In this document: one piece after another, positions 5,133 through 30,569 of the stretch
Numbering within the stretch: the first letter of the stretch is position 1
How the letters are laid out: each line of letters starts with the position of its first letter
Virus record (IMG/VR): IMGVR_UViG_3300006853_000001
From: a virus
Direction: 5' to 3' (one strand)
Length of the DNA stretch: 64,000 bases
Translations under genes and position numbers: made by a program
Notes under the pieces: model-generated
Seen by the model: only the letters and a program-made list of their open reading frames with translations
The model's database searches: none
What the model was told of the DNA's origin: nothing

Positions 5133-6092
5133 TCAGCCCTCCTGCCACGTGCTGTCCACGACCGCTCCGTCCGGGTCGGTCGTCCCGGCGACCCGCCGCT
5201 GCTCCGCGTCGATGAGCAGCAACTCGCGGCGGGCGGTCGCGCGAATGCGGGCGCGGGTCGCCGGGCTGATCTCGTCGCCCAGCTCCTCGATCGTCGCGTT
5301 GATCACGCGTGCGATCGCGGTCGCCTCGTCCTGCGTCCGCTGCACCAGGTACGCCGCGACGCCCGCGTCCACGGCCCACTTCGCGCACTGTGCCATGCGT
5401 GCGTGCCAGAACTCGAGCTTCGTGTTCCAGAACGTGAGGTCGCGCAGCTTCCCGACGCCCAGCGGCTCGCCGGTGTCCGGGTCCACCAGCAGCCCCTCGT
5501 CGCTCTTGACGAGCCGGCCCTCGATCTCCAGGTCGCTGGTCGCCCGCGACAGCACGAGCTGACAGTAGGCGACCTTCCCCGCCGCGATCCGCACCGCCAT
5601 GAGCAGCGCGTCCCACGGCGACAGGTTGAGCTCCTGCGAGTACGCGTGCGCCGCCACCCAGGCCGCCTCCGCTCTTCCTCGTGCCCTGCGACCGCCGTGC
5701 GCGGCACAGGGTCCGTACCCCTCGTTCTCGGTCCTATCACCCGCCGGCCGCTCGCACGGCTCCCACGCCCGGCCCGCCCAGCGGGAGGGCCGGCCAGATC
5801 GTCCCGGCCGGGTCCAGGAGAGCGGTATGGGCTTGCCGCAACGCCGCGGCGGTCCATCATCCTCCCGGTCCTTCCAGGCGTCCCGCGCCTGCTCCAGAGC
5901 CTCCGTCTGCCACCGCGCCAGCTTCAGGTACCGCGAGTCGTTGAACTCGGCGGAATCGCCTCCCACCCAGCGATGTCCGAGGCGTGTCACATCTGGTGAG
6001 CCGAGCACCCACGTGATCCGACGTCCCGCGACGTACGAGCGCGGCACAGTAAGTACCTGTGTTCCCACACACGGTAGCTGGATGTCGGTCAC
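5133..6092 (-). CDS. hypothetical protein, possible DNA-binding (CxxHGG motif as seen in some small terminases)
   Basis: 319 aa ORF containing GYGPCAAHGG followed by a helical region. Low GC3 near position 6092 suggests the true start may be further downstream. The function is not secure. Confidence 0.5.
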   Translation of the reverse strand: MTDIQLPCVGTQVLTVPRSYVAGRRITWVLGSPDVTRLGHRWVGGDSAEFNDSRYLKLARWQTEALEQARDAWKDREDDGPPRRCGKPIPLSWTRPGRSGRPSRWAGRAWEPCERPAGDRTENEGYGPCAAHGGRRARGRAEAAWVAAHAYSQELNLSPWDALLMAVRIAAGKVAYCQLVLSRATSDLEIEGRLVKSDEGLLVDPDTGEPLGVGKLRDLTFWNTKLEFWHARMAQCAKWAVDAGVAAYLVQRTQDEATAIARVINATIEELGDEISPATRARIRATARRELLLIDAEQRRVAGTTDPDGAVVDSTWQEG

Positions 6093-6670
6093 GAGCCAAC
6101 AGTATCACATCTCATTATCGTGACTTACACCATTCTCGTGCACCGTATCGCCGGTGGCTGTTACATTTTAGCCATAAATCAACGATCTTGATTGTTTGAA
6201 GTACTACACTATGTAGAAGTTGGACTTTGGACCACGAAACCCATTTTCGGGTTCGGGCGCGTAGCGCGTAGTGTGTCATGTGTGTGCGTACCCGCGTAAC
6301 AACTGCGTTTGTAGTCCAACTGTCCAAGTATCTTGAAAAAATAGAGAGATAAATACCAACAAACTAGCTCTGAGCTGGAAGAATGTCATAAGTCTTAATT
6401 CCGCTTCCCGTCGTCGCGCTCTGTCCAACCTCGGTCCAACCGCCGTCCACCTGTCCCCAAAACACGGCCAAAGTCGCCCGAAAACGATCATACGTCATCG
6501 CTTCACAGTGCTACGTTACCGCTTCGACTTTGGCACATGCCAACTTGGACCGGTAACTTGGACGCTCTACGCCGCGGTGTGTTCCAAGTTTTCGGGCGAG
6601 TTTCCGGGCGACCTTCCGGGCGACGTTTCGGTCACTTTAATCGACACCTGTAGATCCAACAGCCGTCTCT
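6093..6670. repeat. AT-rich non-coding region with TTGGAC/GTCCAA iterons; candidate replication origin
   Basis: TTGGAC occurs at 6220, 6227, 6545 and 6558, the last two within AACTTGGAC copies. GTCCAA occurs at 6314, 6322, 6423 and 6434, and GTCCAC at 6445. GC content is far below the rest of the window, and the region lies directly downstream of the primase-helicase genes. Confidence 0.55.
6589..6635 (+). repeat. four tandem ~12 bp repeats (TTYCGGGCGAS)
   Basis: The sequence reads ttttcgggcgag / tttccgggcgac / cttccgggcgac / gtttcggtcac. Confidence 0.6.
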
Positions 6671-8239
6671 CTACGCGTCGCTCGCGTACAGCGACAGCAG
6701 CGTCGACAGCCGCCAGCCCTCCCACCGGTGCACCCCCGACTTCGTGCTCCTCCAGCCGCTCGACCGTAGCTGCGCGTTGAAGTCGTCGTAGTTCAACTTC
6801 TCCGCGCGGTCCCGCTGGGCGCCGTAGTCCTTGACCCAGAGCGCGTACCGGTCGTACATACTCTTAAGAGGTACGTACGTGGACTTGACGCCGTACGCGT
6901 TCGTGTCCACCGCCGTCAGCTGGTCGGTGTCGGTGAGCCACCGGAAGAACGAACCCAGGTGAGTGAGGTTGTCGAAGGCGTTCATCGTCGTAAGTCCCTG
7001 CGCCACGATGACGTCTGCGAGGCCGTCCCGGGCCGCCTCCTCGTAGCCGGTGATCAACCGGGCCAGCAGCCACTCGTGCACCTCCGGAGACCTCACGAAG
7101 CGGTCGCGGATCTCCGGGTCTTCCACCAGCGGTGTGTGTGTGAAGTCGAACACGACCATGCGCCGGCGCAGCGCCGCGTCCGCGCCGACGATCCGGGGCA
7201 GCACGTTGGTGACCAGCACCGGTGTAAACGCGGGCCGGACGTCACGGTACTCGTTCTCACGGAACAGCCGCGCGGTGATCGTGCCGCCGCCGGTGAGGTC
7301 CTTCACCCGGTCCCCGTGCAGCTCCCACGCCTGCGACGCCTCCGAGAAGAACGCGACCCGCCGGGCGACGGCCTTCAGGATGTCCGGTCTTCCGCGGTCA
7401 TCCAGGTTGCCGCGAAACACAGACGCCGAGCCGGCCGTCGCGTAGTCCGGGCCGAGCGTCTCCAGCAGCGCCTCCACGAGCTGCGTCTTGCCGGTGGTCG
7501 AAGGCCCCTGGATGATGATGAAGAGGCGCTGGGCGTTGCCTCCGACCAGGCACGACCCCAGCGTCTTAAAGAGCAGCCGCCGCCGCTCCTCGTCCGGGAG
7601 AAACGTCGCCAGGTAGTCCGCTACCTGTGCCGGAGGCGGACCTACTAAGATCTCCGGCCGGTAGTGCGCGCGCGTCGTTCGCGTTACCCGGTCCACGTGT
7701 GATACCGGGCGGGTCGTGACCGCCGGTCTCCGGGGCGCGGGCCGGTCAAGTGTCACAACATCCGGACCGCACACCAGCTCCCGGTCGTTCGCGTCGAAGT
7801 CCGTGAGCCGGGCCTGCAGCTCCGGAAGCGTCTCCGCGGCGCGCAGCGTCGCGGCGCGCCGGGCCACCGACTCCGACGCCGTCGCGTGCTTCGCGAGCCG
7901 GACCAGCGGGCTGTCGCCGCCACCCTCCGGCGGCTCGTCCGACGCCTCCTCCGCCTCCCGCCGGATCTCACGCACCACCCCGAGCGTCAGGGCCAGCGCA
8001 CGGTGGTGCCCCGCCGTGTCCAGTTCCCAGCGCTCGCCGCACCAGAATATCCAGCGCTCGGCGTCCGTGAGGTAGCGCGCGATCTCGCCGTACAGCCGCG
8101 CGAACCGCACGGCGTTCGCGGAGTCCGTGAGACCTAAGCCGTCCGACGCGGCGGTCGCCCAGGCCACGGCATCAGCCACGCCCTCCGGCGCGCCCAGCTC
8201 CGCGTCTACGTTCGCAGCCGAACCGCCGGGCGCGGTCAC
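6671..8239 (-). CDS. DNA primase/helicase, D5-like SF3 (phage/plasmid primase P4-family C-terminal domain)
   Basis: Walker A is present in IIQGPSTTGKTQL and Walker B-like in VAFFSEA. The segment GGGTITARLFRENEYRDVRPAFTPVLVTN is typical of D5/P4 primase-helicases. The start shows a GTGA overlap with the upstream gene. Confidence 0.8.
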   Translation of the reverse strand: MTAPGGSAANVDAELGAPEGVADAVAWATAASDGLGLTDSANAVRFARLYGEIARYLTDAERWIFWCGERWELDTAGHHRALALTLGVVREIRREAEEASDEPPEGGGDSPLVRLAKHATASESVARRAATLRAAETLPELQARLTDFDANDRELVCGPDVVTLDRPAPRRPAVTTRPVSHVDRVTRTTRAHYRPEILVGPPPAQVADYLATFLPDEERRRLLFKTLGSCLVGGNAQRLFIIIQGPSTTGKTQLVEALLETLGPDYATAGSASVFRGNLDDRGRPDILKAVARRVAFFSEASQAWELHGDRVKDLTGGGTITARLFRENEYRDVRPAFTPVLVTNVLPRIVGADAALRRRMVVFDFTHTPLVEDPEIRDRFVRSPEVHEWLLARLITGYEEAARDGLADVIVAQGLTTMNAFDNLTHLGSFFRWLTDTDQLTAVDTNAYGVKSTYVPLKSMYDRYALWVKDYGAQRDRAEKLNYDDFNAQLRSSGWRSTKSGVHRWEGWRLSTLLSLYASDA

Positions 8240-9306
8240 GGCTGGTCCCCTGTGAACGCCCGGCGACCGTTTCGCCGGTAGATGTTCGCCGAGGTATCCG
8301 AGGAGCTACCCGCCGGTCTCCCGGCGCCGAATCCTCGCGCCCGGTCGTACCAGCTCCGGCCCGCCGCCGCAACGGGGTCCGGTTTCACGTCTCGCCAGAC
8401 CTTCCGGAGCTTATACTCGCACCACTCCCAGCGGAACTCGTCGCCCTCCGGGTGCTCCAGCAGCGCGTGCTGCTCGCGCATCACCTCCCGCGCGTCGTCC
8501 CACGCCAGGCCCGCCTTGCGCAGCAGGAACGCCACGTTGTTCACGAACTCGTCACGTGATCCCACCGGCACGACGTCCGTCACCAGCCGGACCAGCCGGG
8601 TGCCGGCGTCCGTCCCGACCCGCGACCCGACCCGCTGGGCGGTGACCACCCCCAGCCTCCGGCGGGTGCCGGACCGGAACACCGGCGCCGTCCGCGCCCA
8701 CTCCGTGACCTCCGGGGACGGCGGCCGCGGCGCGAGGTCGTTCAGCCACTCGTAGCCGGGGGACGGCGGTACGATGACCAGTCCGCCCTCCGCCTTGACG
8801 TCAACGCCCCGCCGTGTCACCGCGTTGCGGGACCGGACGTCCGTCCCGTTCGGCAGGGCGTACACCAGGTGGAAGCCGCCCGACCGTGTTCGCTGGCGCA
8901 GCGTGTTCGGGAACGACCACGGCAGCCCGGTGACCTCCTCCCACGCGTCGTGCGCCTCCGGTCCGCCGTGCTTGACGTCGAAGTCCACGACGAAGATGCC
9001 CGACGCGCGCCCGGTGCGCACGGCGAGCACGTCCGCGTCCGGGAACGCGTCGCACGTGCGGTCCCAGGCGTCCGGGTCGCGGGTTCCCGCGTAGAGGCCG
9101 TGGCAGGTGGTGTGCGGGCAGGCGTCCGGCCGGTGCGGCGTCGCCCGGCACGCCGGACACATCGGCAGCGACCGCCGGACGCCGTCCGGTCCGGTGCGCT
9201 CCGGGAAGACGGCCCAGCCGCGCTCGGCTATGTACCGGTGACCGGCCGCGCGAATGACGTCTCCCGCCGGGTACACCTCGCCGGTCTGCCGTGGTATTGT
9301 CGACAC
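8236..9306 (-). CDS. bifunctional DNA primase/polymerase (AEP prim-pol)
   Basis: The motifs IFVVDFDVKHGG (DxD), RSGGFHLVY and GVDVKAEGGLVIVPPS are present. GTG 9306 follows AGGAGG. The ORF track start at 9405 is likely too long. Confidence 0.8.
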   Translation of the reverse strand: MSTIPRQTGEVYPAGDVIRAAGHRYIAERGWAVFPERTGPDGVRRSLPMCPACRATPHRPDACPHTTCHGLYAGTRDPDAWDRTCDAFPDADVLAVRTGRASGIFVVDFDVKHGGPEAHDAWEEVTGLPWSFPNTLRQRTRSGGFHLVYALPNGTDVRSRNAVTRRGVDVKAEGGLVIVPPSPGYEWLNDLAPRPPSPEVTEWARTAPVFRSGTRRRLGVVTAQRVGSRVGTDAGTRLVRLVTDVVPVGSRDEFVNNVAFLLRKAGLAWDDAREVMREQHALLEHPEGDEFRWEWCEYKLRKVWRDVKPDPVAAAGRSWYDRARGFGAGRPAGSSSDTSANIYRRNGRRAFTGDQP

Positions 9307-9555
9307 GTAGCGTAGACCTCCTATTCTGTTGTTTAGCGCGGGCGCCCCTGACTTCCTGGCCGAGGGCGCCCCCGTGTTTCTCCGGGTAGACAGGCAGCCT
9401 ACCACCGGTGGCCGCTGTGATCATTTCCCAGACGCGGCTCGTTCCGGCGGGATCTGGTCGCCGCCCCGGCGCCCCGGTTGTGGTATGATCTGGTAGGAGC
9501 CGACGCCTCCGGCCACGGCCGGCGCCGGCTCCCGACCCCTCCAGGGAGGCGAGAG
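9307..9555. promoter_or_regulatory. divergent control region between the leftward and rightward operons
   Basis: A 249 bp gap separates genes on opposite strands. It contains two copies of the palindromic GGGCGCCC(C) at 9340-9348 and 9364-9373, and an extended -10 TGGTATGAT at 9481-9489 (+). Confidence 0.55.
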
Positions 9556-14420: not shown

Positions 14421-15443
14421 TTGCTGTGTATAGTTGAGGGCCCGGACGGCGCGGGTAAGTCCACCCTCGTCGCCGCGGTCGCCGCCGCCCTCCGCGCCAC
14501 GTGTCCCCACGATGATGTGGAGGTCTGGCACGCCGGACCTCCACCTCCGGGCGCGCACCCGCTGGACCTGTACGCCCGGCCGCTGTACGACTATCGGCCG
14601 GGCGTCGGTCGTCACATCATCTGCGACCGGTGGCACGTCGGGGAGTGGGTGTACCCCGCCGTGTTCGGTCGCCCGTCCCGGGCGGATGAGGCGAGTCGCC
14701 GGTGGCTGGACATGTTCCTGCAGGCGCGTGGCGCCCTGTTAGTTCACGTGAACCCGCCGCTGTCACGTGTCGAGGCGCAGCTCCGAGCACGTGGCGACAG
14801 CACGGTTGTCCCCGGACAGCTACCCGAGCTGTTTCTCCGTTATCACGCCGAGGTCGCCCGGTCACGGCTGCGCCGGTGGCACCTGACACACGACAGCTGG
14901 TCGGCGGCCGGCGTCGCCGAGGTGGTTCTCGAGGAGGCACGACGCGCGGAGGATGAGGCTATCCCACTCGGCCGATTCGCCACGTACGCGGGTCCTGCGC
15001 GACCCCACTACCTCCTGCTGGGCGACGTGCGCCACCAGTTGCGCGACCGTGTTGGTTCGTTTTTAACACCTCGGCACAGCGTCGCGTACGGTCCGGCGTT
15101 TGGGCCGTATCCCGGCACGTCAGGCCACTACCTGTTAACGTACCTTCCCGAGGCGATGTTTCACGCCGGCGGCGACGCGGGCATCGGCGTCGCGAACGCC
15201 TGCGACGTGGATGACTGGAAGGATCTGTGGGACGTGCTCGGCGAACCACTGATCGTGACGCTGGGCGTACGTGCGACACGTGAGTTAGGATCATTCGCAC
15301 GAGGCTCGACGCCTCACCCGCAGTACGCACGGCGATTTCACTTTAACGACGCCGTCAGGTACGGTCAAGCGATCCACCGCGCGGGGCGATACGGGGAGCA
15401 CGTGCGTAGGTGGCACGATGTCGATACCACCGGTGAGAACTAA
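14421..15443 (+). CDS. fusion protein: thymidylate/dNMP kinase-like P-loop domain plus UDG-superfamily-like domain
   Basis: The N-terminus has VEGPDGAGKST (Tmk P-loop) and ICDRW (the DR motif). The C-terminus (about aa 185-320) carries UDG-like motifs in the expected order: YLLLGDVRHQ, GPAFGPYPGTSGHYLL, VANACD, IVTLGVRA, TPHPQY. Confidence 0.55.
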   Translation: MLCIVEGPDGAGKSTLVAAVAAALRATCPHDDVEVWHAGPPPPGAHPLDLYARPLYDYRPGVGRHIICDRWHVGEWVYPAVFGRPSRADEASRRWLDMFLQARGALLVHVNPPLSRVEAQLRARGDSTVVPGQLPELFLRYHAEVARSRLRRWHLTHDSWSAAGVAEVVLEEARRAEDEAIPLGRFATYAGPARPHYLLLGDVRHQLRDRVGSFLTPRHSVAYGPAFGPYPGTSGHYLLTYLPEAMFHAGGDAGIGVANACDVDDWKDLWDVLGEPLIVTLGVRATRELGSFARGSTPHPQYARRFHFNDAVRYGQAIHRAGRYGEHVRRWHDVDTTGEN

Positions 15444-15457
15444 GGTGAGAGATTAAC

Positions 15458-15667
15458 GTGAACTGCTCGAAGTGCAGCAACGGTGACTTACCGTACGAGT
15501 GGACGGTTACGGCGGACGGCGACCCACGGGACATCATACTGTATCGTGGTCCCGACGAGTTAGCCGCGCGTGCGACGCTCGCCGCGGAGACGCCGGTCAA
15601 CGGCTGGGGTGCGACGCTCACGCGTCGTCACGTCGGACCGAGTGAGATCATGGCAACCAACCGCTAG
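15458..15667 (+). CDS. hypothetical protein
   Basis: 69 aa ORF with GTG start after GAGAG. Confidence 0.45.
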   Translation: MNCSKCSNGDLPYEWTVTADGDPRDIILYRGPDELAARATLAAETPVNGWGATLTRRHVGPSEIMATNR

Positions 15668-15682
15668 ATAAGGAGATGCAAC

Positions 15683-16522
15683 GTGGGTGCTCTCATCGAG
15701 ATCGCCAACGGCGTTCGTGGCTACGGCGACTACGTGAATCACGTGCTCAACCGATCACATCCAAGAACCGCGCGCGGCCTGCCGACGCGTGACGCCGGTT
15801 TTACGGTGGTTGTGCTTCACGACGTCACCCAGTCGCTGCCACTCGATGTCGGTCGCCAGGTCAGCACAAAAATCGCGGCGCTGGAGGCGCTTCAACTCGT
15901 TGGAGGTCACTCGGATCCTCGGTCGCTGGTAGACGCCGCGCCGTTCTTCGGCGAGCTGCTGGAGCCCGACACCCGACGGTTTCACGGCGCATACGGCGAC
16001 CGAATTCGCGGCCAACTGGTCCAGGTTGTGACGAAGTTGCGCGAGGACCCCGGCTCACGGCAGGCCGTCATCACCCTGTGGGATCCGTGGCTGGACAACC
16101 AACCGGGCAAGAAGGACTACCCATGCACCGTTGCGATTGGGTTCGAGGTAGTTCGAGGTCGAGGCCTCGACATGAACGTCACCATGCGCAGTCAGGATGT
16201 CTGGCTCGGAACGCCCTACGACTGGTTCCAGTTCTCACTCCTTCAGATGACCGTTGCCCGACTACTTGGGGTCGAACCGGCGCTCTATCATCACACAACA
16301 TGGTCCACACACATCTACGAGCGTGATATCACAAAGCTCGACTGGCTGACCGATCCGCCACCCGCCGAGCATCGAACTCAGCAACCTCACACCGGTGTTG
16401 GAGAGGTTCTCGGCAACCCACACTCGACCACCCAGCGGGCACGTGACCTGCTGTTCGACGCCGTGAAGCCCGATGAGTTGTCCGTCTCCGAGAGGATCTT
16501 GCGTGACTGGCTCACCACCTAG
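15683..16522 (+). CDS. ThyA-family pyrimidine nucleotide C5 methylase/hydroxymethylase (Asp at the Asn177-equivalent position)
   Basis: RQAVITLWDP, YPCT (catalytic Cys148) and MRSQDVWLGTPYDWFQF align to E. coli ThyA SAWN, PCH and QRSCDVFLGLPFNIASY. Codon 16220-16222 (GAC) places Asp where ThyA has Asn177. Confidence 0.7.
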   Translation: MGALIEIANGVRGYGDYVNHVLNRSHPRTARGLPTRDAGFTVVVLHDVTQSLPLDVGRQVSTKIAALEALQLVGGHSDPRSLVDAAPFFGELLEPDTRRFHGAYGDRIRGQLVQVVTKLREDPGSRQAVITLWDPWLDNQPGKKDYPCTVAIGFEVVRGRGLDMNVTMRSQDVWLGTPYDWFQFSLLQMTVARLLGVEPALYHHTTWSTHIYERDITKLDWLTDPPPAEHRTQQPHTGVGEVLGNPHSTTQRARDLLFDAVKPDELSVSERILRDWLTT

Positions 16523-17027
16523 GGTTCGCCCGTCGTGGGACGAGACGTGGCTCGCGCAGGCGCGGGCCATCGGCGCGCGCAGCCTCTGCTCGCGCGCCCA
16601 GGTCGGTGCGGTCATCGTGTCCTCGGACAACAGCCGCACGTGGGTCGGGTACAACGGCGTCCCGGCGGGGTTCGAGCACAACGATCGGCCGTGCGTCGAG
16701 TGGTGCCCGCGCGCCCAGAAGTTTCGGCGCTTTAGCCCGTCATACGACGACTGCTACACGGTGCACGCGGAGGTCAACGCTCTGCTCAAGATGGACCGCG
16801 AGCTGGGTCGCGGCGGCACCCTCTACACGACGGGTGACGTCTGCTTCGCCTGTGCTAAGGTCGTAGCCAACTCGGGTCTGGCGACCGTGGTCGTGCTGTC
16901 GGACGGCCTCGCCGCCCACCGCAAGCCCGACGACACGTACCGGTTTCTCGAGAGGTGTGGGTTATCGGTCATCGTGCACACCGGTAACCTATCCGGTTCG
17001 GGTCCCGTGGTCACGTATAACGCGTAG
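16503..17027 (+). CDS. dCMP deaminase (cytidine/deoxycytidylate deaminase family)
   Basis: The zinc motifs HAEVNAL and CFACAKVV are present, and WDETWLAQA is a typical ComEB/dCMP deaminase N-terminus. GTG 16503 follows GAGAGGA; ATG 16473 is an alternative start. Confidence 0.75.
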   Translation: MTGSPPRVRPSWDETWLAQARAIGARSLCSRAQVGAVIVSSDNSRTWVGYNGVPAGFEHNDRPCVEWCPRAQKFRRFSPSYDDCYTVHAEVNALLKMDRELGRGGTLYTTGDVCFACAKVVANSGLATVVVLSDGLAAHRKPDDTYRFLERCGLSVIVHTGNLSGSGPVVTYNA

Positions 17028-17036
17028 GAGAGTAGC

Positions 17037-18863
17037 TTGATCCTCGATGATGTCGAACTTCACCTCGTCAACTCACTGGATGAGGTGCTCGCCTTCAGAG
17101 AGTGGCTCGGCCGGCGCCGCGAGAACGATGCGATCGCCTTCGACACGGAGACGTCGGGTCTGGATACGATCCGTGACCGAGTTCGCCTCATCCAGTTCGG
17201 CGACGACGCGGCGGGGTGGGCGTTCGACCGGGATGACTGGCTCGGCGTGGCCCGCTGGGTGTTCGCCAACTGGCAGGGCGACCTCATCGGACACAACGCG
17301 CCGTTCGACACGTCGATGCTGGCCAACTCGTGTGGTATCGAGGTGCCGCGTCACCGGACTCATGACACGATGGTGCAGTCACGAGTCAACGAGTCACACA
17401 TGTCGATGGCGCTCAAGTCACAGGCGGCCCGCCACGTGGACCCGCGCGCCGCCGGGCTGCAGCTCGAGCTCGGCGGCACGGGCTTCGACTGGGCGACGGT
17501 ACCGGTCGAGTTCCCCGAGTACTGGACGTACGCCGCGCTGGACCCGGTGCTGACGTACGCTCTGGATGGCTACCACCGACCGCGCGTCCTGTCCGAGGCG
17601 CCCGCGGCGTACGACCTGGAGATGGCCGTCCTCTGGGTGGTCGAACGCATGCGAACCTACGGTACCCGGGTGGACGTGCCCTACGCGCAAGAGCACCACG
17701 GTAAGTTGGAGCGGTACTGCGAGAGCGTGGAGCGGTGGTGTCGAGACACGTACCGGGTCAAGCCCGGCTCCAACGCGGCGATCGTAGGTATCCTCGAGGA
17801 GGAGGGCTACCGCTTCTCGAAGGCGACCCAGGCCGGCGCGAAGTCGCTGGATGCCGAGGTGCTGGAGGGCATCGATCACCCGCTAGCGACGGCCGTCCTC
17901 GGTCGCCGGCGCGCCCAGAAGATGTCATCCACGTACCTCCGGTTCTACGTCGAACGCTCAGACGTGAACAGTCTCATTCACCCGTCGTTCAACACACTGG
18001 GCGCCCGAACGTCGCGTATGTCGTGCAGCGACCCCAACCTGCAGAACCTGCCGCGCGCCGGCTCCACGCCGTTCGCCGACCTGGTGCGTAACTGTATCGT
18101 AACGCGCTACGGTCCCTGGGATCCCAACCTGACCCCGGTTGCGAACGCACTCACACACGGCTGTCTGATCATGTGCGACTTCGACCAGATCGAGATGCGG
18201 CTGCTGGCGCACTTCGCGCAGGAGTTCGCGATGATCGAGGCGTTCAAGCTGCCGCAAGACTTCTTCGTGACACTTGCTCGCCAGATCTACGAGGATGAGA
18301 CAATCACTAAGCAGGACAAGCGCCGCCAGATCACCAAGAACGCGGGTTACGCCAAGATCTACTCGGCAGGCGTTAACAAGTTCGCCCAGACCGCCGGGAT
18401 CCCGGTACCACAGGCGCGTTCGTTCCTCCAGCGCTTCGATCAGCTCTACCCGGGTGTGCGGCAATTTCAAGACACCGTTCTCGAGCTAGCCTTGGGGCAG
18501 CAAGCCACCGAGGGCATCGCGTACGCCCGGTCACCCTTCACCAACCGCCGGTACGTCGCGGATCGCCGCAAGGAGTATGCCCTCATCAACTACCTCACCC
18601 AGGGTGGTGCGGCCGAGATCAACAAGATGAAGCTGGTGCAGCTTGACGCGGCCGGTCTCGGCCCGTACATGTTCGCGACCGTTCACGATGAGGTACTGCT
18701 CGACGTACCCGGCGAGCATGTCCTCGACGCGGTGCACATCCTACAGAAGATCATGAATGACGACCAGATGCTGTCGGTGCCGATCACCGCGTCCGTGTCG
18801 TTCGGCGAGAGGTGGGGGTCCAAGCTCGACTGGAGTGAGCAGCACGCGCAGGTCGCCGCGTGA
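17037..18863 (+). CDS. DNA polymerase I (family A) with 3'-5' exonuclease domain
   Basis: The exonuclease motifs are AFDTETSGLD, HNAPFDTSML and YAALDPVL. The polymerase motifs are A (CDFDQIEMRLLAH), B (RRQITKNAGYAKIYSAG) and C (ATVHDEVLLD). Confidence 0.9.
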   Translation: MILDDVELHLVNSLDEVLAFREWLGRRRENDAIAFDTETSGLDTIRDRVRLIQFGDDAAGWAFDRDDWLGVARWVFANWQGDLIGHNAPFDTSMLANSCGIEVPRHRTHDTMVQSRVNESHMSMALKSQAARHVDPRAAGLQLELGGTGFDWATVPVEFPEYWTYAALDPVLTYALDGYHRPRVLSEAPAAYDLEMAVLWVVERMRTYGTRVDVPYAQEHHGKLERYCESVERWCRDTYRVKPGSNAAIVGILEEEGYRFSKATQAGAKSLDAEVLEGIDHPLATAVLGRRRAQKMSSTYLRFYVERSDVNSLIHPSFNTLGARTSRMSCSDPNLQNLPRAGSTPFADLVRNCIVTRYGPWDPNLTPVANALTHGCLIMCDFDQIEMRLLAHFAQEFAMIEAFKLPQDFFVTLARQIYEDETITKQDKRRQITKNAGYAKIYSAGVNKFAQTAGIPVPQARSFLQRFDQLYPGVRQFQDTVLELALGQQATEGIAYARSPFTNRRYVADRRKEYALINYLTQGGAAEINKMKLVQLDAAGLGPYMFATVHDEVLLDVPGEHVLDAVHILQKIMNDDQMLSVPITASVSFGERWGSKLDWSEQHAQVAA

Positions 18864-25303: not shown

Positions 25304-26434
25304 GTGAAGATACTCATGCTGGTGCCTAACTTCTGGATCTCAGGCACCGTCACGCACATTCGCGAGCTGACGCTCGGCTGGCCGCCGGAGTGGCCGACGC
25401 CGCCGATCGCCGTGCCCACGCGTTCCGGCCGACCGTCCGGTAAGTGGGGACGCGACATCGCCGACGTGAAACGCGCCGACGCGACGACGTGGCGCCCGGA
25501 CCACTGGGGCACACCCGCCGAGATCGCACACCTGGCGCGTAACTTCGATCTCGTACACGTCAACGAGGCGGAGACGACACCGAGCTCGCAGGAGTGGTGG
25601 TACCAGACGCTCGAGCTCCTCGAGACGCCGTGGACGCTCCAGCTGAACGGAAACCTGTATCCGACCGTCAACTGGGACCGTATCCTCCGCTCGCCGCGCT
25701 CTACGGGCGTCATCTGGCAGACCCCGGGCAACGTGCCCGAGGCGCTCGTCCGTGACGACCGCGCGACGCTGGTGCCGCTATCTCGTCCCTGGAACCTGCG
25801 GTCGGCGACGTATGATCCTCCGGCCGGACCTGGAGGTGATAAGCCGCCGCTGGTCGGCTTCCACGGTCGTCTCGCGCCGGACAAGGGTGTGGCGCACGTT
25901 GCCGCGCTGGCCAAGCACCTCGACGTCGATGTCTGTCTTCACGGCGCGTCGCCGGGTGGCGGCTACCCCTACGCCTACGGTCTTCAACACACGTACCTCG
26001 GCGACCGGAAGTTTCGCGCGGAGGAGCCGTGGACCGCGCCTGATCTACCTCTACACTACGAAGGTCCCTACGGGGAGGGTTACGATGTGTCGCTGCATCA
26101 CACCGTGCACGTGTCGGCGACGCGTCTGGGCTTCTCGGCGGGTACCGAGTTCGCCCTGCTGGAGGCCATCGACGCGGGTTGTCGGATCGTCGTACCGGAT
26201 CACATGACCGAGCCCGCGACGCTCGGCGTGCTGCGGCAGTGGACGTACCCGTGGGAGCCGCGCGGCCTCAAGACCGCGCTGTCCGGCGAGCTGCGGTCGC
26301 TGAGTGAGGCGGTAAACCACGCGCTATACGTATCGTCATATGACGCCTCGCACAACCGGCAGGTGCTCGCTACGCACCACAACCCCGCCGCACTGGCCTG
26401 TGCGTTCTTCGGCGTCGCGGCATCCCGGATCTAG
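25304..26434 (+). CDS. GT-B fold glycosyltransferase (GT4-like)
   Basis: The N-terminus is MKILMLVPNF. LVGFHGRLAPDKGV is present, and the C-terminus has an E-x7-E-like motif (GTEFALLEAIDAGCRIVVPD). Confidence 0.65.
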   Translation: MKILMLVPNFWISGTVTHIRELTLGWPPEWPTPPIAVPTRSGRPSGKWGRDIADVKRADATTWRPDHWGTPAEIAHLARNFDLVHVNEAETTPSSQEWWYQTLELLETPWTLQLNGNLYPTVNWDRILRSPRSTGVIWQTPGNVPEALVRDDRATLVPLSRPWNLRSATYDPPAGPGGDKPPLVGFHGRLAPDKGVAHVAALAKHLDVDVCLHGASPGGGYPYAYGLQHTYLGDRKFRAEEPWTAPDLPLHYEGPYGEGYDVSLHHTVHVSATRLGFSAGTEFALLEAIDAGCRIVVPDHMTEPATLGVLRQWTYPWEPRGLKTALSGELRSLSEAVNHALYVSSYDASHNRQVLATHHNPAALACAFFGVAASRI

Positions 26435-26450
26435 AACGGAGGTGATAAGT

Positions 26451-27806
26451 ATGCGTGTTGGGTACGGAAAGATAGGAAGATCGATGCCGCTCAGCATCAC
26501 GAAGTGCGGTAGTCTCGGCGGCGACGTGGAGATGGCCGCGACGATCGGCGAACTCGCGCGGCGCAACCCGGAGTCAGACTTCTACCTCATCGGAAAGAAC
26601 AGCGGCGAGGAGCCCACGTCGGTCGGCCTGCCGAGCAACGTGCACAACCCGTGGATCAAGTGGGGTCCGCAGCTGCTCGACGCCAAGCGCCGTACCGGCT
26701 TGAATCACGCGAACTACTCCGTGGCCGACCACCTCGCTCTGCAAGACATCTATGACTCGGTAACGCTCGACTTCATAACGAAGCTCGACGGCATCGTACT
26801 CTGGGCCGGCCAGCACGGTACGACCAACGTGCCGCTGCCCGGCGTACGTGAACCCGGTAAGTACACCAAGCCACACGACTGGTCGGCGCACTACGTCGCG
26901 TTTCTGACACGAGCGATCAACATCTGGCGCGACGTCAACCCGTGGAAGCGCGAGGAGATCTGGCTCAACTCCGATCCGCGCAACTACCTCAAGTTACGCG
27001 ACCTCAAGTGGCCGCTGCGTCACCCGGTGCTCGCACAACACACGTATCATCACAGGATCAAGCACGCGCGGTACGGAGACCCGGGCCCGAACGGCGCTTT
27101 TGAGGAGTGGTCTGCCACGTGCGACCTCGGCGTCGAGACGCCGAGCGATGTCGATAAGGTGTGGAAGGCGTCCGTGCGGAATGTATACGCCCGGTTGGAG
27201 GTCAACGGTCTCTTGCCCAGCACACCGTTCGGCGACCTGCTGTCGTTCAACGACCGCTGGGAAGATCGCGCGGGGTTCGGCCTCTTCATGAATGAGACGC
27301 GACGCTACGTGCGCCAGGACATAACCCGGTCACACGTAATGCGTGAGTGGGTACTACCACTGGAACCGGCGTGGATTCACGGCACGTGGTCACAGGCCGG
27401 CCAGGAGGAGATCAACCGCGAGATCACCCCGGCACCGTGGGGCGACTACGTACCTAAGCTTCACTCCGTACGCTGTACCTTCACCTCACCGGCCAGCGGC
27501 ACCGGCTGGGCCACGGCTAAGCCGTGGGAAGCGTTCGCGGCCGGTACCGTGTGCTTCTTTCACCCCGGCTACGACGTCCAGGATAACATCCTCGGCGACG
27601 CACCGTTGTGGTTGAAGGACTGGCTGCGCGTCACCTCGCCCGACGAGTTGGTACACCGGGTTAAGCACCTCAGCTCAGACGCGGGTCGCACCGACTGGTA
27701 TGAGCTCGTAGCCGCCCAGCGCATACACTTCAATGACGCCGTTCGGGAGTTACGCTTTGCCCGGCTGATCGAAGCGCGCCTCGGGCTGCGAGGTACCGGT
27801 GACTAG
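26451..27806 (+). CDS. glycosyltransferase resembling T4 DNA beta-glucosyltransferase (GT63-like)
   Basis: By-eye alignment to T4 BGT gives four matches. MRVGYGKIGRS aligns with MKIAIINMGNN. IWLNSDPRN aligns with YLFTDIRL, the catalytic Asp100. NETRRYVRQ aligns with GSFRSGQRE, Arg191/Arg195. AKPWEAF aligns with LRVWETM, Arg269/Glu272. The spacings are similar. ATG 26451 follows GGAGGTGA. Confidence 0.55.
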   Translation: MRVGYGKIGRSMPLSITKCGSLGGDVEMAATIGELARRNPESDFYLIGKNSGEEPTSVGLPSNVHNPWIKWGPQLLDAKRRTGLNHANYSVADHLALQDIYDSVTLDFITKLDGIVLWAGQHGTTNVPLPGVREPGKYTKPHDWSAHYVAFLTRAINIWRDVNPWKREEIWLNSDPRNYLKLRDLKWPLRHPVLAQHTYHHRIKHARYGDPGPNGAFEEWSATCDLGVETPSDVDKVWKASVRNVYARLEVNGLLPSTPFGDLLSFNDRWEDRAGFGLFMNETRRYVRQDITRSHVMREWVLPLEPAWIHGTWSQAGQEEINREITPAPWGDYVPKLHSVRCTFTSPASGTGWATAKPWEAFAAGTVCFFHPGYDVQDNILGDAPLWLKDWLRVTSPDELVHRVKHLSSDAGRTDWYELVAAQRIHFNDAVRELRFARLIEARLGLRGTGD

Positions 27807-28593
27807 GGGATCGTCGGGCGCCACGTTCCGGTACTACCTCGAGAGCGTCGGCAAGATGTGCCGGACGGACGACGGGCGTACATCACGCCAGGGACTGTGG
27901 TTACGTCAGCACCAGTCTCCCGCCGTTCCGAAGGTACTGTCGGTATATGAGCACGGCTACCAGATGGAGCGGCTCGACGACATCTCTTACATGTGGTTAA
28001 ACCACCGTGTGGTGCTCGCCGGGATCGTGGAACAACTCGAGCAGCACGTGTGGTCACAGTCCGCCGAGGTCGAGTGGTCACAGCAGGCGACGGTCGACAA
28101 GGTGGCAGACCTACTCGGAATGTTCGACGTCGGTGTTGAGGTTCAGCTGTGGCTGGAAAAGACGCACGAGTCGATCGACTGGAACGCACTTCCACGGTGC
28201 CTAACGCACGGCGACCCGACGCTGGACAACGTGATGTTTAGGCCCGGTACATCCGAACTGGTCATCATCGACCCGGTTCCCGCGACCTCGGCGGTGCCCG
28301 ACATCCGGGCTGTGGACCTCGGTAAGATGCTCCAATCAGCGCTGGGCTGGGAGCGGGTTCGGTACGGCTACCGTGAGGTAACGGGAGCTCTCGACACGCT
28401 CGGTGGCAGTGCGCGAATCAACCCGTACCACGTGCAAACGTACGCGCAAGATGATAACGAGTGGAACGCGGCCGTACTCTGGTGCGTCATTCACCTACTA
28501 CGCACCCTACCCTACCTCGCACGATGTGCGGCACCTAAGGTTCAAGATGACGTGAGAGGCATGATCGGTGACGCAACTACGTTTCTTCCTTGA
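27799..28593 (+). CDS. APH/choline-kinase-fold small-molecule (sugar?) kinase
   Basis: The Brenner motif is present in CLTHGDPTLDNVMF, with the metal-binding Asp in LVIIDPV. Confidence 0.65.
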   Translation: MTRGSSGATFRYYLESVGKMCRTDDGRTSRQGLWLRQHQSPAVPKVLSVYEHGYQMERLDDISYMWLNHRVVLAGIVEQLEQHVWSQSAEVEWSQQATVDKVADLLGMFDVGVEVQLWLEKTHESIDWNALPRCLTHGDPTLDNVMFRPGTSELVIIDPVPATSAVPDIRAVDLGKMLQSALGWERVRYGYREVTGALDTLGGSARINPYHVQTYAQDDNEWNAAVLWCVIHLLRTLPYLARCAAPKVQDDVRGMIGDATTFLP

Positions 28594-29179
28594 TCTGGAT
28601 GGCACACTCGCCGACACCGACGCGCTTAACCGGGAGGCATATCGACGAGTTGGTGTTGAGGTACCGCCGAACGCCGCCGGCTTGTCATACCGTGAGTGGC
28701 TCGGCGATCTGGTCGGTATCGGTGATGTTGAGCGTGTTCACACCGCTAAGCAGGTGTGGTACGGCATCCTGCTGGGTGACGTAGATCCGCACACCTTAGC
28801 TCTGCCGCCGACCCGACTCGCACGTACCCTGCTGTACGGTGATGCTCGGCGGTCGGCGACCGTGTCGTGTCTAACGGCTGCGTCACACGAGTGTGCACGT
28901 ACCCTACTTCGTCGACTAGGTCTAAGCGTACCCGTCAAGCCACAGTTAACGTATGACGCACGACGCGTGATTTTGTCGCGTGCGATGTCCGTCGCCAAGC
29001 ATCGAGGTACCGGTTCCGTGGTATATGTTGATGACATGGGCAGCACCGTCGAGCGACTCACCGAGGACGTTCCGGGTCTCCGGTTGCTGCACTACACCGG
29101 GCAAACCTACGAGCAACTACGCGCCGAGCTCGCCGATGTCTTAGGAGAACTTATCACCAGAGAGTTGAAAACAGCGTGA
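28568..29179 (+). CDS. HAD-superfamily phosphatase/phosphomutase
   Basis: Motif I is FLDLDGTLADTD (DxDxT) and motif IV-like is VVYVDDMG. Confidence 0.7.
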   Translation: MTQLRFFLDLDGTLADTDALNREAYRRVGVEVPPNAAGLSYREWLGDLVGIGDVERVHTAKQVWYGILLGDVDPHTLALPPTRLARTLLYGDARRSATVSCLTAASHECARTLLRRLGLSVPVKPQLTYDARRVILSRAMSVAKHRGTGSVVYVDDMGSTVERLTEDVPGLRLLHYTGQTYEQLRAELADVLGELITRELKTA

Positions 29180-29862
29180 TCGACCACGCCGGGTTGGACG
29201 CCGTGATTCTCGCCGGTGGTAAGAGTGAGCGACTGAACGGGGTGGTACCTCCCTACTTCAAGCCGTTCGTCGTCATCGAGGGCAGGTCGCTGCTGGTCGC
29301 CGCGGTGGATAGCGCGCTGGCGATGGGTGCGCGTCGGGTGATCGTGGTGTCCGCCGGCGAGAACGCCCTGCCGGTGTTTCAACTGGTGGGTCACCGCCCG
29401 GAGATTCGCGTGATGCTGGCCACCGGCGGACCCGGCCGCGCGCTTCGCCGAGGTCTCGAGCTGTGTCAAACACAACGCGTTCTGGTGCTGATGAGCGACA
29501 ACATCCACGGACCCGAGGACGTCTACGCGGTATGCACGGCGGCGAACTACGCGGTCGGCGTGCGAGTCGTTCACCGGGTTGAGGCCGAGAGGTTTACTCG
29601 TCTCCGAGGCGACCGCTGGGTGGAGCGTAGATATGACCAAGACCCGCTCGATGATGAGGTAGCGAAATGGAGCGACGACGCTACACAGGCGGTAACGGTC
29701 TGGTGCGGCCCGCTGGTCATCGACCGGTACCGCGGTCTCAACGCACTGGCCGGCCAGGAGAAGATCGGTCCGGTGCTCAATGAGATGGCGCCCAGCTTCG
29801 CGCTGGTACACGTGTTAACGCAGGATATCGGCACGCCCGACGCGGTACGCCGGGTGACCTAG
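29176..29862 (+). CDS. nucleotidyltransferase (MobA/IspD/sugar-phosphate NTP-transferase fold)
   Basis: AVILAGGKSERL is the LAGGxGxRL signature, and VLVLMSDN is present. The start shows a GTGA overlap. Confidence 0.65.
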   Translation: MIDHAGLDAVILAGGKSERLNGVVPPYFKPFVVIEGRSLLVAAVDSALAMGARRVIVVSAGENALPVFQLVGHRPEIRVMLATGGPGRALRRGLELCQTQRVLVLMSDNIHGPEDVYAVCTAANYAVGVRVVHRVEAERFTRLRGDRWVERRYDQDPLDDEVAKWSDDATQAVTVWCGPLVIDRYRGLNALAGQEKIGPVLNEMAPSFALVHVLTQDIGTPDAVRRVT

Positions 29863-29874
29863 GAAAAATGAGAG

Positions 29875-30057
29875 ATGATGCGAGCAGGTAAGCTGACCCC
29901 GCGCCAGCGCCGGCGCGCGGCTAAGAAGAGTACGGCTGCCGCCGAGCGTCGTAAACACAACTACATCGATCAGCTGATCGAGGCGCGGGCACATCGCGCC
30001 GCGCGTAGGACAATGATAAGTGCAATGCGTGATGCTCGGAAGAAACTGGTGAGTTGA
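29875..30057 (+). CDS. small basic protein
   Basis: 60 aa, rich in Lys and Arg; ATG follows GAGAG. Confidence 0.45.
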   Translation: MMRAGKLTPRQRRRAAKKSTAAAERRKHNYIDQLIEARAHRAARRTMISAMRDARKKLVS

Positions 30058-30569
30058 TGGATCGCCTCGAGGAGATGTTACACGCCCAGCGGGAGCTCCA
30101 GGAGCTGATCAACGGCTACACGCTCGAGAGTCAGTCAGACGAGCTGCGCATCGCGAACATCAAGGAGAGCTACGTCGCGCTTATCAAGGAGCTCGGCGAG
30201 GTTCTGGATGAGATTGGCTGGAAGAGCTGGGCGACCAGTCGTCACATCAACTACGAGGCGGCACGCGGCGAGGTCGTTGACTGCTGGCACTTTCTCATGA
30301 ACCTCGCGCTGCACCTTAACGTGACCGCAGATGACCTGTACGAGGGCTACCGCCGAAAGCGTGAGAAGAACGAGCGACGCCAGCGCGAGGGCTACGACGG
30401 TGTGACGGGCAAGTGCCCGCACTGTCGACGGTCGTACGATGACCAAGGAGTCCGGTGCACCCCGTCGTGTGTCGCGACCGGCGGAACGCCGGCCTGGTGC
30501 GTGGAAGCCGGTCGGCTGGTCGGACCCGGTACACTCTCCGCTACATCAGAAACCACCCACAACACCTGA
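30057..30569 (+). CDS. all-alpha NTP pyrophosphohydrolase (MazG / dimeric dUTPase-dCTPase family) with Cys-rich tail
   Basis: Contains ALIKELGEVLDEIGWKSW and EVVDCWHFLMNLA, the paired acidic helices typical of the family. The C-terminus has CPHCRRSYDDQGVRCTPSC. Confidence 0.6.
   Translation: MDRLEEMLHAQRELQELINGYTLESQSDELRIANIKESYVALIKELGEVLDEIGWKSWATSRHINYEAARGEVVDCWHFLMNLALHLNVTADDLYEGYRRKREKNERRQREGYDGVTGKCPHCRRSYDDQGVRCTPSCVATGGTPAWCVEAGRLVGPGTLSATSETTHNT

Follow-up and report, generated by a model that had tools for sequence, protein, structure and literature searches.

Phage family-A DNA polymerases that carry a uracil-DNA glycosylase (UDG) or UDG-like domain as a fusion have been documented, and in some of these domains the catalytic residues are degenerate (PMC13697223). 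These polymerase fusions (SPO1-like, N4-like and YerA41/phiLo; PDB 9qhs) set a UDG-fold module on a replication or precursor enzyme of pyrimidine-modifying phages, and they are the nearest described precedent for the protein reported here, a fusion of a nucleotide kinase and a UDG-like domain encoded at 14421–15443 (+ strand) of a 64,000-nucleotide stretch (hereafter the window; 64% G+C) of the IMG/VR virus record IMGVR_UViG_3300006853_000001, which is 103,486 bp long and rated complete by CheckV. In the polymerase fusions the partner of the UDG module is the polymerase and the phages modify T, whereas here the partner is a kinase, the polymerase is encoded separately and modification of C is predicted. 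The structure 9qhs is itself among the fold matches of the C-terminal domain of the new protein.

Family 4 UDGs (1l9g, 1ui0, 4zby) and UdgX (6ail) have the four-strand fold and the motif order in common with this C-terminal domain, which also keeps their acidic residue at position 2 of motif A, the Phe loop, the Asn of beta2, the LGxxA segment and the His-Pro of motif B. It differs from family 4 in its length (~140 residues versus ~190–200), in lacking the Cys ligands of the 4Fe-4S cluster, in an Arg in place of the motif-A Pro, in HPQ instead of HPS/HPA and in being fused to a kinase. On the kinase side, YorR (2axp, 3kb2) and thymidylate kinases (1g3u, 2v54) share the P-loop, the DR block, the RGD/E of the LID and the fold with the fusion, but YorR is a stand-alone protein of 173 amino acids, while the fusion protein has an additional domain of 155 amino acids. 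T4 gp1, which acts in the 5-hydroxymethylcytosine pathway with gp42, gp56 and cd and is not known to carry a UDG-like domain, fills the same predicted pathway slot, namely phosphorylation of 5-hydroxymethyl-dCMP (hm-dCMP) in the company of a dCMP hydroxymethylase, a dCMP deaminase and an NTP pyrophosphohydrolase, yet differs in kinase family as judged by best structural and sequence matches rather than by direct comparison. The best matches of the gp1-type deoxynucleoside monophosphate kinases of phages DLP3, RB69 and RL38J1 are 1del/1dek (PMC13326640).

A nucleotide kinase and a UDG fold in one reading frame

The open reading frame (ORF) and its two halves comprise the following features.

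14421–15443, + strand: kinase–UDG-like fusion, whole ORF, 340 amino acids, TTG start, TAA stop, single open frame
14421–14969, + strand: P-loop nucleotide-kinase domain of YorR/Tmk type (residues 1–183), from a YorR profile match, a fold match and PHROG 761
14436–14465, + strand: Walker A / P-loop EGPDGAGKST (residues 6–15), from sequence and the conservation of K13
14625–14657, + strand: Tmk-type DR block DRWHVGEWVYP (residues 69–79), aligning with DRFVYSNLVY of YorR and DRFHEGEWIY of Bacillus phage G gp315
14790–14798, + strand: LID segment R124-G125-D126, aligning with RGDE of YorR
14904–14975, + strand: long helix linking the two domains (residues 162–185), from DSSP on the AF2 model; a kinase-only relative (L052) stops just past it
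14976–15395, + strand: UDG-superfamily fold of ~140 amino acids without Fe-S ligands (residues ~186–325), from Foldseek, VIA-align, Pfam on homologues and hhalign

The frame is continuous over 340 codons without an internal stop, an AGGA lies 8–11 nt 5' of the TTG start, and the motifs quoted in an initial annotation of this DNA, made from the sequence alone, were all found in the ORF where that annotation had placed them. A whole-protein search returned 242 full-length two-domain relatives of 305–375 amino acids. In IMG/VR, relatives are encoded on 174 stretches, of which 80 were kept, and residue conservation was counted over 371 non-identical homologues with an overall identity of ~30–40%, to which the counts out of 371 given below refer. 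Searched alone, a profile of the C-terminal domain picked up 1953 clusters (50% identity level) at E ≤ 1e-3 and still 828 at a limit of 1e-10, and in nearly all of the 150 best cluster matches the domain occupies approximately residues 175–320 of a protein of ~320 amino acids. Candidates for a stand-alone C-terminal domain were rejected: the short proteins inspected (158–232 amino acids) are N-terminally truncated fragments on short contigs, with the kinase LID still present. The full-length AF2 model is confident across both halves (pLDDT 93.7, pTM 0.92). An artefact in which a missed stop or frameshift has merged two neighbouring genes is of negligible probability, given that the frame is unbroken in the window and in hundreds of independent contigs and that the inter-domain helix is confidently modelled; with the uninterrupted frame and the 242 full-length relatives the two-gene reading is refuted, and the single-ORF fusion proposed by the initial annotation stands.

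Within the Tmk/dNK kinase superfamily, the N-terminal half belongs to the YorR type, because profile, fold and the DR and LID residues all match YorR. A family profile searched against the PDB found YorR (2axp/3kb2) with E 4e-15 along the full domain, including the DR block and the RGD/E of the LID, and thymidylate kinases at ~0.01 only; by VIA-align, YorR 2axp superposes with Z 18.2 (root-mean-square deviation 2.8, 168 residues) and thymidylate kinases with Z ~14 (1g3u and 2v54, 14.3–14.4). The initial description of this half as a Tmk-like domain with a P-loop and a DR motif is thus borne out, with YorR as the closest match. The Walker A pattern GxxxxGK[ST] is present as GPDGAGKS (residues 7–14), with K13 in 364 of 371 homologues and a gap at that column in the other 7. 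The DR[YFH]-type motif, which follows strand 2 in such kinases and binds the NMP phosphate, appears as D69-R70-W71 (D69 369/371; R70, E75 and Y78 371/371), and R124 of the LID is found in 351/371. PHROG 761 'thymidylate kinase' matches at 2.6e-10. Pfam Thymidylate_kin (PF02223) scores 17.4 bits over the P-loop only and does not reach its gathering threshold of 27 bits, and a precomputed PF02223 match is present in some homologues. In the complete 103-kb genome, the fusion is the sole Walker-A ORF that resembles a nucleotide kinase.

With the full-length model, Foldseek and VIA-align gave kinase matches only, so the C-terminal domain was modelled alone (pLDDT 85.7). Foldseek then placed ~30 consecutive UDGs on top, comprising UdgX, the family 4 enzymes of T. 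thermophilus, S. tokodaii and T. maritima, and family 5, with a best UDG match of E 1.1e-2 and probability 0.98. In a VIA-align comparison with 48,161 chains, 1l9g ranked first (Z 8.2, 126 residues), followed by UdgX 6ail (7.6) and 2d3y (7.4), with MUG, SMUG1, SMUG2, TDG and the UDG domain of the phiLo polymerase at lower ranks. The initial annotation had proposed a UDG-superfamily-like domain with the motif order of families 4 and 5, and a fold search with UDGs on top agrees with it. Of 50 homologous C-terminal domains, 22 match Pfam UDG at E ≤ 1 (best 7.2e-6); when ten members were searched singly, six matched at 13.7–19 bits, three of them spanning profile positions 4–135 of 141 at 15–19 bits. 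The ESM Atlas likewise leads to viral clusters of 127–137 amino acids, with Pfam UDG in 18–36% of members. Lastly, hhalign of the C-domain alignment against a family-4/UdgX alignment gave a probability of 77% and E 2e-5 over 102 columns, with all five motifs in register with family 4. The family-4/UdgX alignment comprised 27 actinobacterial sequences from public genomes; the loci L103 and L111, from the unpublished genomes G004 and G021, were excluded and support no claim made here.

The order of secondary-structure elements assigned by DSSP is that of the UDG topology (beta1–motif A (GDxR), beta2–Asn, beta3–LGxxA, beta4–motif B (HPQ)), and the model contains a four-stranded parallel sheet with motif A, the Asn and motif B at the places they take in UDGs. 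The C-terminal domain of the window protein itself gave no match in Pfam or PHROG. A profile of the C-terminal domain found no UDG among PDB sequences even at E ≤ 10, and a Pfam UDG search of the whole phage genome gave no match. Since there was no sequence-level match in the PDB, the link to UDGs needed a fold search and a purpose-built family-4 alignment. As four independent lines agree (Pfam on homologues, Foldseek, VIA-align and hhalign), we place the C-terminal half in the UDG superfamily, closest to family 4.

Conserved motifs and the putative ligand pocket

The five UDG-like motifs, with their family 4 counterparts in the hhalign alignment, are as follows.

15009–15035, + strand: motif A, YLLLGDVRH (residues 197–205), after beta1; LLLGDVRH aligns with fVGEaPG, D202 with the Glu of GEAPG and R204 with its Pro
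15090–15134, + strand: Phe loop and Ser-Gly segment, GPAFGPYPGTSGHYL (residues 224–238), counterpart of PFVGxAGxLL; TSGHYLL aligns with aAGkLL
15186–15212, + strand: GVANACDVD at the end of beta2 (residues 256–264; VANACD is 257–262); N259, the Asn of VANAC, aligns with the Asn of NvvKC
15261–15275, + strand: LGxxA of beta3 (residues 281–285; IVTLGVRA is 278–285); TLGVRA aligns with tLGnfA
15312–15338, + strand: motif B, PHPQYARRF (residues 298–306), after beta4; PHPQY aligns with tHPAa and H299 with the motif-B His

Conservation across the homologues is concentrated in these segments. Motif A follows the consensus G-[DE]-x-R-[HN] (G201 370/371, D/E202 369/371, R204 369/371), the Phe loop retains F227 and P229 (both 370/371), S234 (366/371) and G235 (363/371), and N259 (370/371) and D/E262 (367/371) mark the end of beta2. 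In beta3 G282 is invariant (371/371) and A285 is found in 359/371, and in motif B H299, P300, R305 and F306 are each found in 370/371 and Q301 in 364/371. Taken together, D/E202, R204, F227, P229, S234, G235, N259, D/E262, H299, P300, Q301, R304, R305 and F306 are each kept in 97.8–99.7% of the 371 sequences, and the five UDG motifs contain 11 of the 13 columns that are invariant in the C-terminal domain. Such a concentration of conservation in the five motifs, despite an overall identity of only ~30–40%, speaks for a functional ligand pocket and against a degenerate remnant. The asparagine of family 4 that corresponds to N259 is the residue that reads uracil. Median isoelectric points are 7.9–9.1 for the C-terminal domain, which is thus mildly basic, and 6.1 for the kinase.

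The pocket departs from family 4 in several respects. Instead of G-E-[AG]-P-G, motif A reads G-D-V-R-H, and the altered catalytic motif reported by the initial annotation proves to be a family trait, the Arg standing in for Pro in 369 of 371 homologues. Pro occupies this position in the extracted family 4/UdgX sequences (GEAPG/GEGPG/GEQPG), in family 5 (GLAPA) and in phage G gp315, and to our knowledge it is universal there across the described UDG families. Motif B, H-P-Q-Y-x-R-R-F, has the His and Pro of the family 4 H-P-[SA], which is followed by a basic residue, and a Gln at the third position. As to the four Cys ligands of the 4Fe-4S cluster, the alignment does not reach the CxxC region, the later Cys is deleted, and the domain has no invariant Cys column. 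The Phe loop carries a three-residue insertion relative to family 4, and the hhalign gap placement there is ambiguous; despite this ambiguity, the invariant F227 is taken as the probable counterpart of the stacking Phe.

Gene context and distribution of the fusion

Four further genes of the window bear on the pathway in which the fusion is likely to act.

15683–16522, + strand: ThyA homologue, predicted 5-hm-dCMP synthase, with Asp at the positions of E. coli N177 and L143 and D169 kept
16473–17027, + strand: dCMP deaminase (Pfam 3.8e-16; PHROG 174 1.3e-32)
17037–18863, + strand: family-A DNA polymerase, assigned by synteny and homology with the 'DNA polymerase I' gene of phage DSL-LC01 only
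30054–30569, + strand: all-alpha NTP pyrophosphohydrolase of dUTPase/dCTPase type, 171 amino acids (PHROG 18650 'dUTPase' 4.2e-40)

The gene order is strongly conserved in related loci, with the fusion followed by the ThyA homologue in 81 of 81, and with the dCMP deaminase present in 79, PolA in 79 and an SNF2 helicase in 74. The ThyA homologue reads PYD where E. coli has PFN (N177D), has Asp at L143 in the motif D-Y-P-C and retains D169, all three of which are found in 80 of 80 sequences. N177D together with L143D/E is the signature of dCMP-specific, non-methylating ThyA homologues, and D169N marks 5-hydroxy-dCMP synthases (PMC13326640); the Asp/Asp pair with a retained D169 therefore predicts synthesis of 5-hm-dCMP. 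This homologue is the sole ThyA in the genome, in which no ThyX was found, and it is labelled thymidylate synthase in related records. YorR/Tmk-like 'nucleotide kinases' also adjoin cytosine-type ThyA homologues in the hypermodification clusters of DLP3, RB69 and RL38J1 (PMC13326640).

Between the fusion and the ThyA homologue lies an ORF of 69 amino acids (15458–15667) with a CxxC near its N-terminus and no Pfam or PHROG match. It appears to be a lineage-specific insertion, because the ThyA match follows within ~100 nt in most of the 80 loci; exceptions in spacing are L041 and L081, with ~560–575 nt. The longest ORF for the dCMP deaminase shares 50 nt with the 3' end of the ThyA homologue (16473–16522); translation probably begins at a later codon, as the Pfam match starts at residue 21. 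The NTP pyrophosphohydrolase is a candidate dCTPase/dUTPase of the pathway. A whole-genome search with Pfam dUTPase, MazG and MazG-like gave no match and missed this gene; the idea that the phage lacks a dUTPase was dropped after the PHROG 18650 match, and with it the argument from a uracil problem. Upstream of that gene lie an APH-fold phosphotransferase (27799–28593) and a MobA-like nucleotidyltransferase (29176–29862), both downstream of two large ORFs without an assigned family (25304–27806). On the opposite strand (–), a D5_N-type primase-helicase (6671–8239) and a Prim-Pol (8236–9405) occupy 6671–9405, upstream of the rightward block of replication and nucleotide genes.

A BFVD fold match led to a second occurrence of the architecture in Bacillus phage G, a Firmicute jumbo phage, whose gp315 (AEO93574.1, 331 amino acids, annotated only as 'gp315') has the same two domains. 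Its kinase half matches the family profile with an hhalign probability of 98% and E 4.5e-14, including the DRFHEGEWIY block, and Pfam scores are 48 bits for UDG in the C-terminal half and 28.9 bits for Tmk, over the cut-off. The gp315 motif B, HPAYVKRF, resembles the HPQYVRRF of the family, whereas its motif A is AQNPG, with Pro kept and Asn at position 3, as against G-[DE]-x-R in the family of the window. AQNPG resembles the motifs of MUG and SMUG. The alignment of the gp315 C-terminal domain with those of the window family spans 55 columns only, at a probability of 77%. In the gp315 module (L121:18188–29495, equal to Bacillus phage G 223187–234494) the neighbours include two alpha-glucosyltransferases, a sugar-1-phosphate nucleotidyltransferase, a HAD phosphatase, a dCMP deaminase and a ThyA homologue in which both N177 and L143 are replaced by Asp. 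With such neighbours around gp315, fusion and pathway are found together again in a markedly different lineage of phages. The content of the module suggests that phage G also makes glycosylated 5-hydroxymethylcytosine (hmC), on which no paper was found.

The sole match among GenBank phages by BLAST is the metagenome-assembled Actinomycetia phage DSL-LC01, which has the same gene order and in which the fusion is labelled 'thymidylate kinase'. Among 185,579 species genomes only three weak or truncated matches were obtained, and the family was not found there as a prophage. Among uncultured phages whose DNA is predicted to contain hydroxymethyl-cytosine, mostly of actinobacterial or freshwater type, the fusion is very frequent. 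One IMG/VR phage, L052, has a kinase-only gene (6001–6552, 183 amino acids) that ends just past the linker helix and lies immediately next to the ThyA homologue, and its 55.9-kb contig (74% complete) yielded no UDG-like sequence. The existence of this form indicates that the protein is at its core a kinase, with the UDG-like half as an accessory part. The initial annotation did not recall the architecture as described. In agreement with this, a search of the accessible literature found no paper describing a nucleotide kinase–UDG fusion; the architecture is however not a rarity, as the hundreds of relatives in uncultured phages and the unannotated gp315 of phage G demonstrate. Both folds are known, and what is new is the fusion architecture and the mini-UDG without Pro and Fe-S cluster.

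Function of the two-domain protein

We favour, with a probability of about 0.5, the explanation that the fusion is a two-domain enzyme of a C5-modified-cytosine pathway, combining an hm-dCMP kinase with a UDG-like half that flips or excises bases. The suggestion of the initial annotation, that phosphorylation of a modified dNMP might be coupled to recognition or removal of a base, fits the gene context. The YorR/Tmk-type kinase would phosphorylate the monophosphate supplied by the adjacent ThyA homologue, most likely 5-hydroxymethyl-dCMP, and may also take dTMP; the phage polymerase, whose gene lies three genes further downstream, would draw on its products, so that a role held by gp1 in T4 would here be played by another kinase family. 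We propose this role for the kinase because it is the sole nucleotide-kinase-like Walker-A ORF, stands in a fixed cassette and adjoins a gene with the hm-dCMP-synthase signature. The C-terminal half is a minimal UDG-superfamily domain of the family-4 line, without the Fe-S cluster and motif-A Pro of that line but with its acidic residue, stacking Phe, pocket Asn and motif-B His. It would probably flip a pyrimidine from DNA and excise uracil or 5-hydroxymethyluracil (hmU) arising by deamination of C, hmC or their nucleotides, uracil-type base excision being its most likely activity because Asn259, Phe227 and His299 are in place. By virtue of the fusion, this surveillance would take place where precursors are made and DNA is replicated.

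Several observations weigh against this explanation. The Z score of the UDG fold, 8.2, is only modestly above that of the first unrelated fold, 6.6, and the C-terminal domain of the window itself stays under every Pfam and PHROG threshold (the Pfam UDG gathering threshold is 24.3 bits). The motif-A Pro is replaced by an invariant Arg, and the domain lacks ~50 family-4 residues as well as the family-4 Fe-S cluster. YorR, the nearest kinase relative, carries no assigned substrate, L052 shows the UDG-like half to be dispensable in at least one lineage, and the dUTPase-type NTP pyrophosphohydrolase of the phage lessens the need for a uracil glycosylase.

Among the alternatives, the one we rank highest, although we hold it to be doubtful, is that the UDG-like half is not catalytic and serves as a DNA- or protein-binding module that tethers the kinase, and hence the supply of dNTPs, to the replisome or the phage DNA. 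The poxvirus UDG D4 is a polymerase processivity subunit, and phage PolA enzymes carry inactive UDG-like domains. The loss of the motif-A Pro and the Fe-S cluster, the shortened domain, the catalytically degenerate state of some UDG-like domains fused to phage family-A polymerases, the position of PolA three genes downstream in 79 of 81 loci, the rigid two-domain body suggested by the pTM of 0.92 and the L052 lineage, which manages without the domain, would all suit such a module. The pocket residues (acidic, Phe, Asn, His and Ser-Gly) are however kept in at least 98% of homologues at ~30–40% identity, which would be unexpected for a mere tether. That same pocket might instead bind a free nucleotide and not DNA. 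It would then be a specificity filter or allosteric sensor for the kinase, or an N-glycosidase breaking down an unwanted mononucleotide, for example dUMP or dCMP. The fusion partner does act on mononucleotides, the predicted packing between the domains is tight, the invariant Arg204, Arg304 and Arg305 could grip a 5'-phosphate, and UdgX has been crystallised with dUMP (6ajp). We nonetheless regard a free-nucleotide pocket as unlikely, since the Ser-Gly segment, the LGxxA and the R-R-F segment after the His are all kept, which correspond to the DNA-backbone and wedge elements of UDGs, and we know of no UDG-fold enzyme with a mononucleotide as its natural substrate.

Least probable of the three, and in our view improbable, is an enzyme that works at the DNA level, in which the UDG-like module would flip hmC or hmU and the P-loop kinase would phosphorylate the hydroxymethyl group in the manner of 5-HMUDK in thymidine hypermodification. 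Kinases of hmU in DNA exist, are P-loop proteins and occur in multi-domain fusions, the phage is predicted to carry hydroxymethylated DNA, and the domains are rigidly coupled in the model. The kinase, however, has a Tmk-type DR block, its nearest relatives are mononucleotide kinases, the genome offers no other candidate for the hm-dCMP kinase step, and in L052 it works without the UDG-like half. The hidden Markov model of the kinase domain scored 6.6 bits, over the P-loop only, against the presumptive 205-amino-acid 5-HMUDK ORF of phage M6, whose identity with gp54 is assumed, the record being unannotated; kinship with 5-HMUDK was thus rejected at the sequence level. Were such an enzyme real, it would be the first hmC DNA kinase and a case of a glycosylase fold repurposed as a base-presenting module. 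In a milder variant of this improbable reading, the protein would be a glycosylase that the motif-A Arg has retuned to distinguish modified pyrimidines from unmodified ones, and thereby phage DNA from host DNA.

Phages that substitute hmC for cytosine need a kinase for the modified nucleotide, and a large uncultured clade, of at least 828 clusters at E ≤ 1e-10, appears to use one of YorR/Tmk type rather than the T4 gp1 type. This kinase is nearly always joined to a minimal domain of UDG fold, on whose pocket selection is strong. The genes for this fusion are currently mislabelled 'thymidylate kinase' or 'hypothetical'. If the C-terminal domain is an active glycosylase, it would represent a new UDG family of ~140 residues without Fe-S cluster and motif-A Pro and would show how phages with modified DNA police deamination products; if it is inactive, it would be a clean case of a repair fold recruited to another job.

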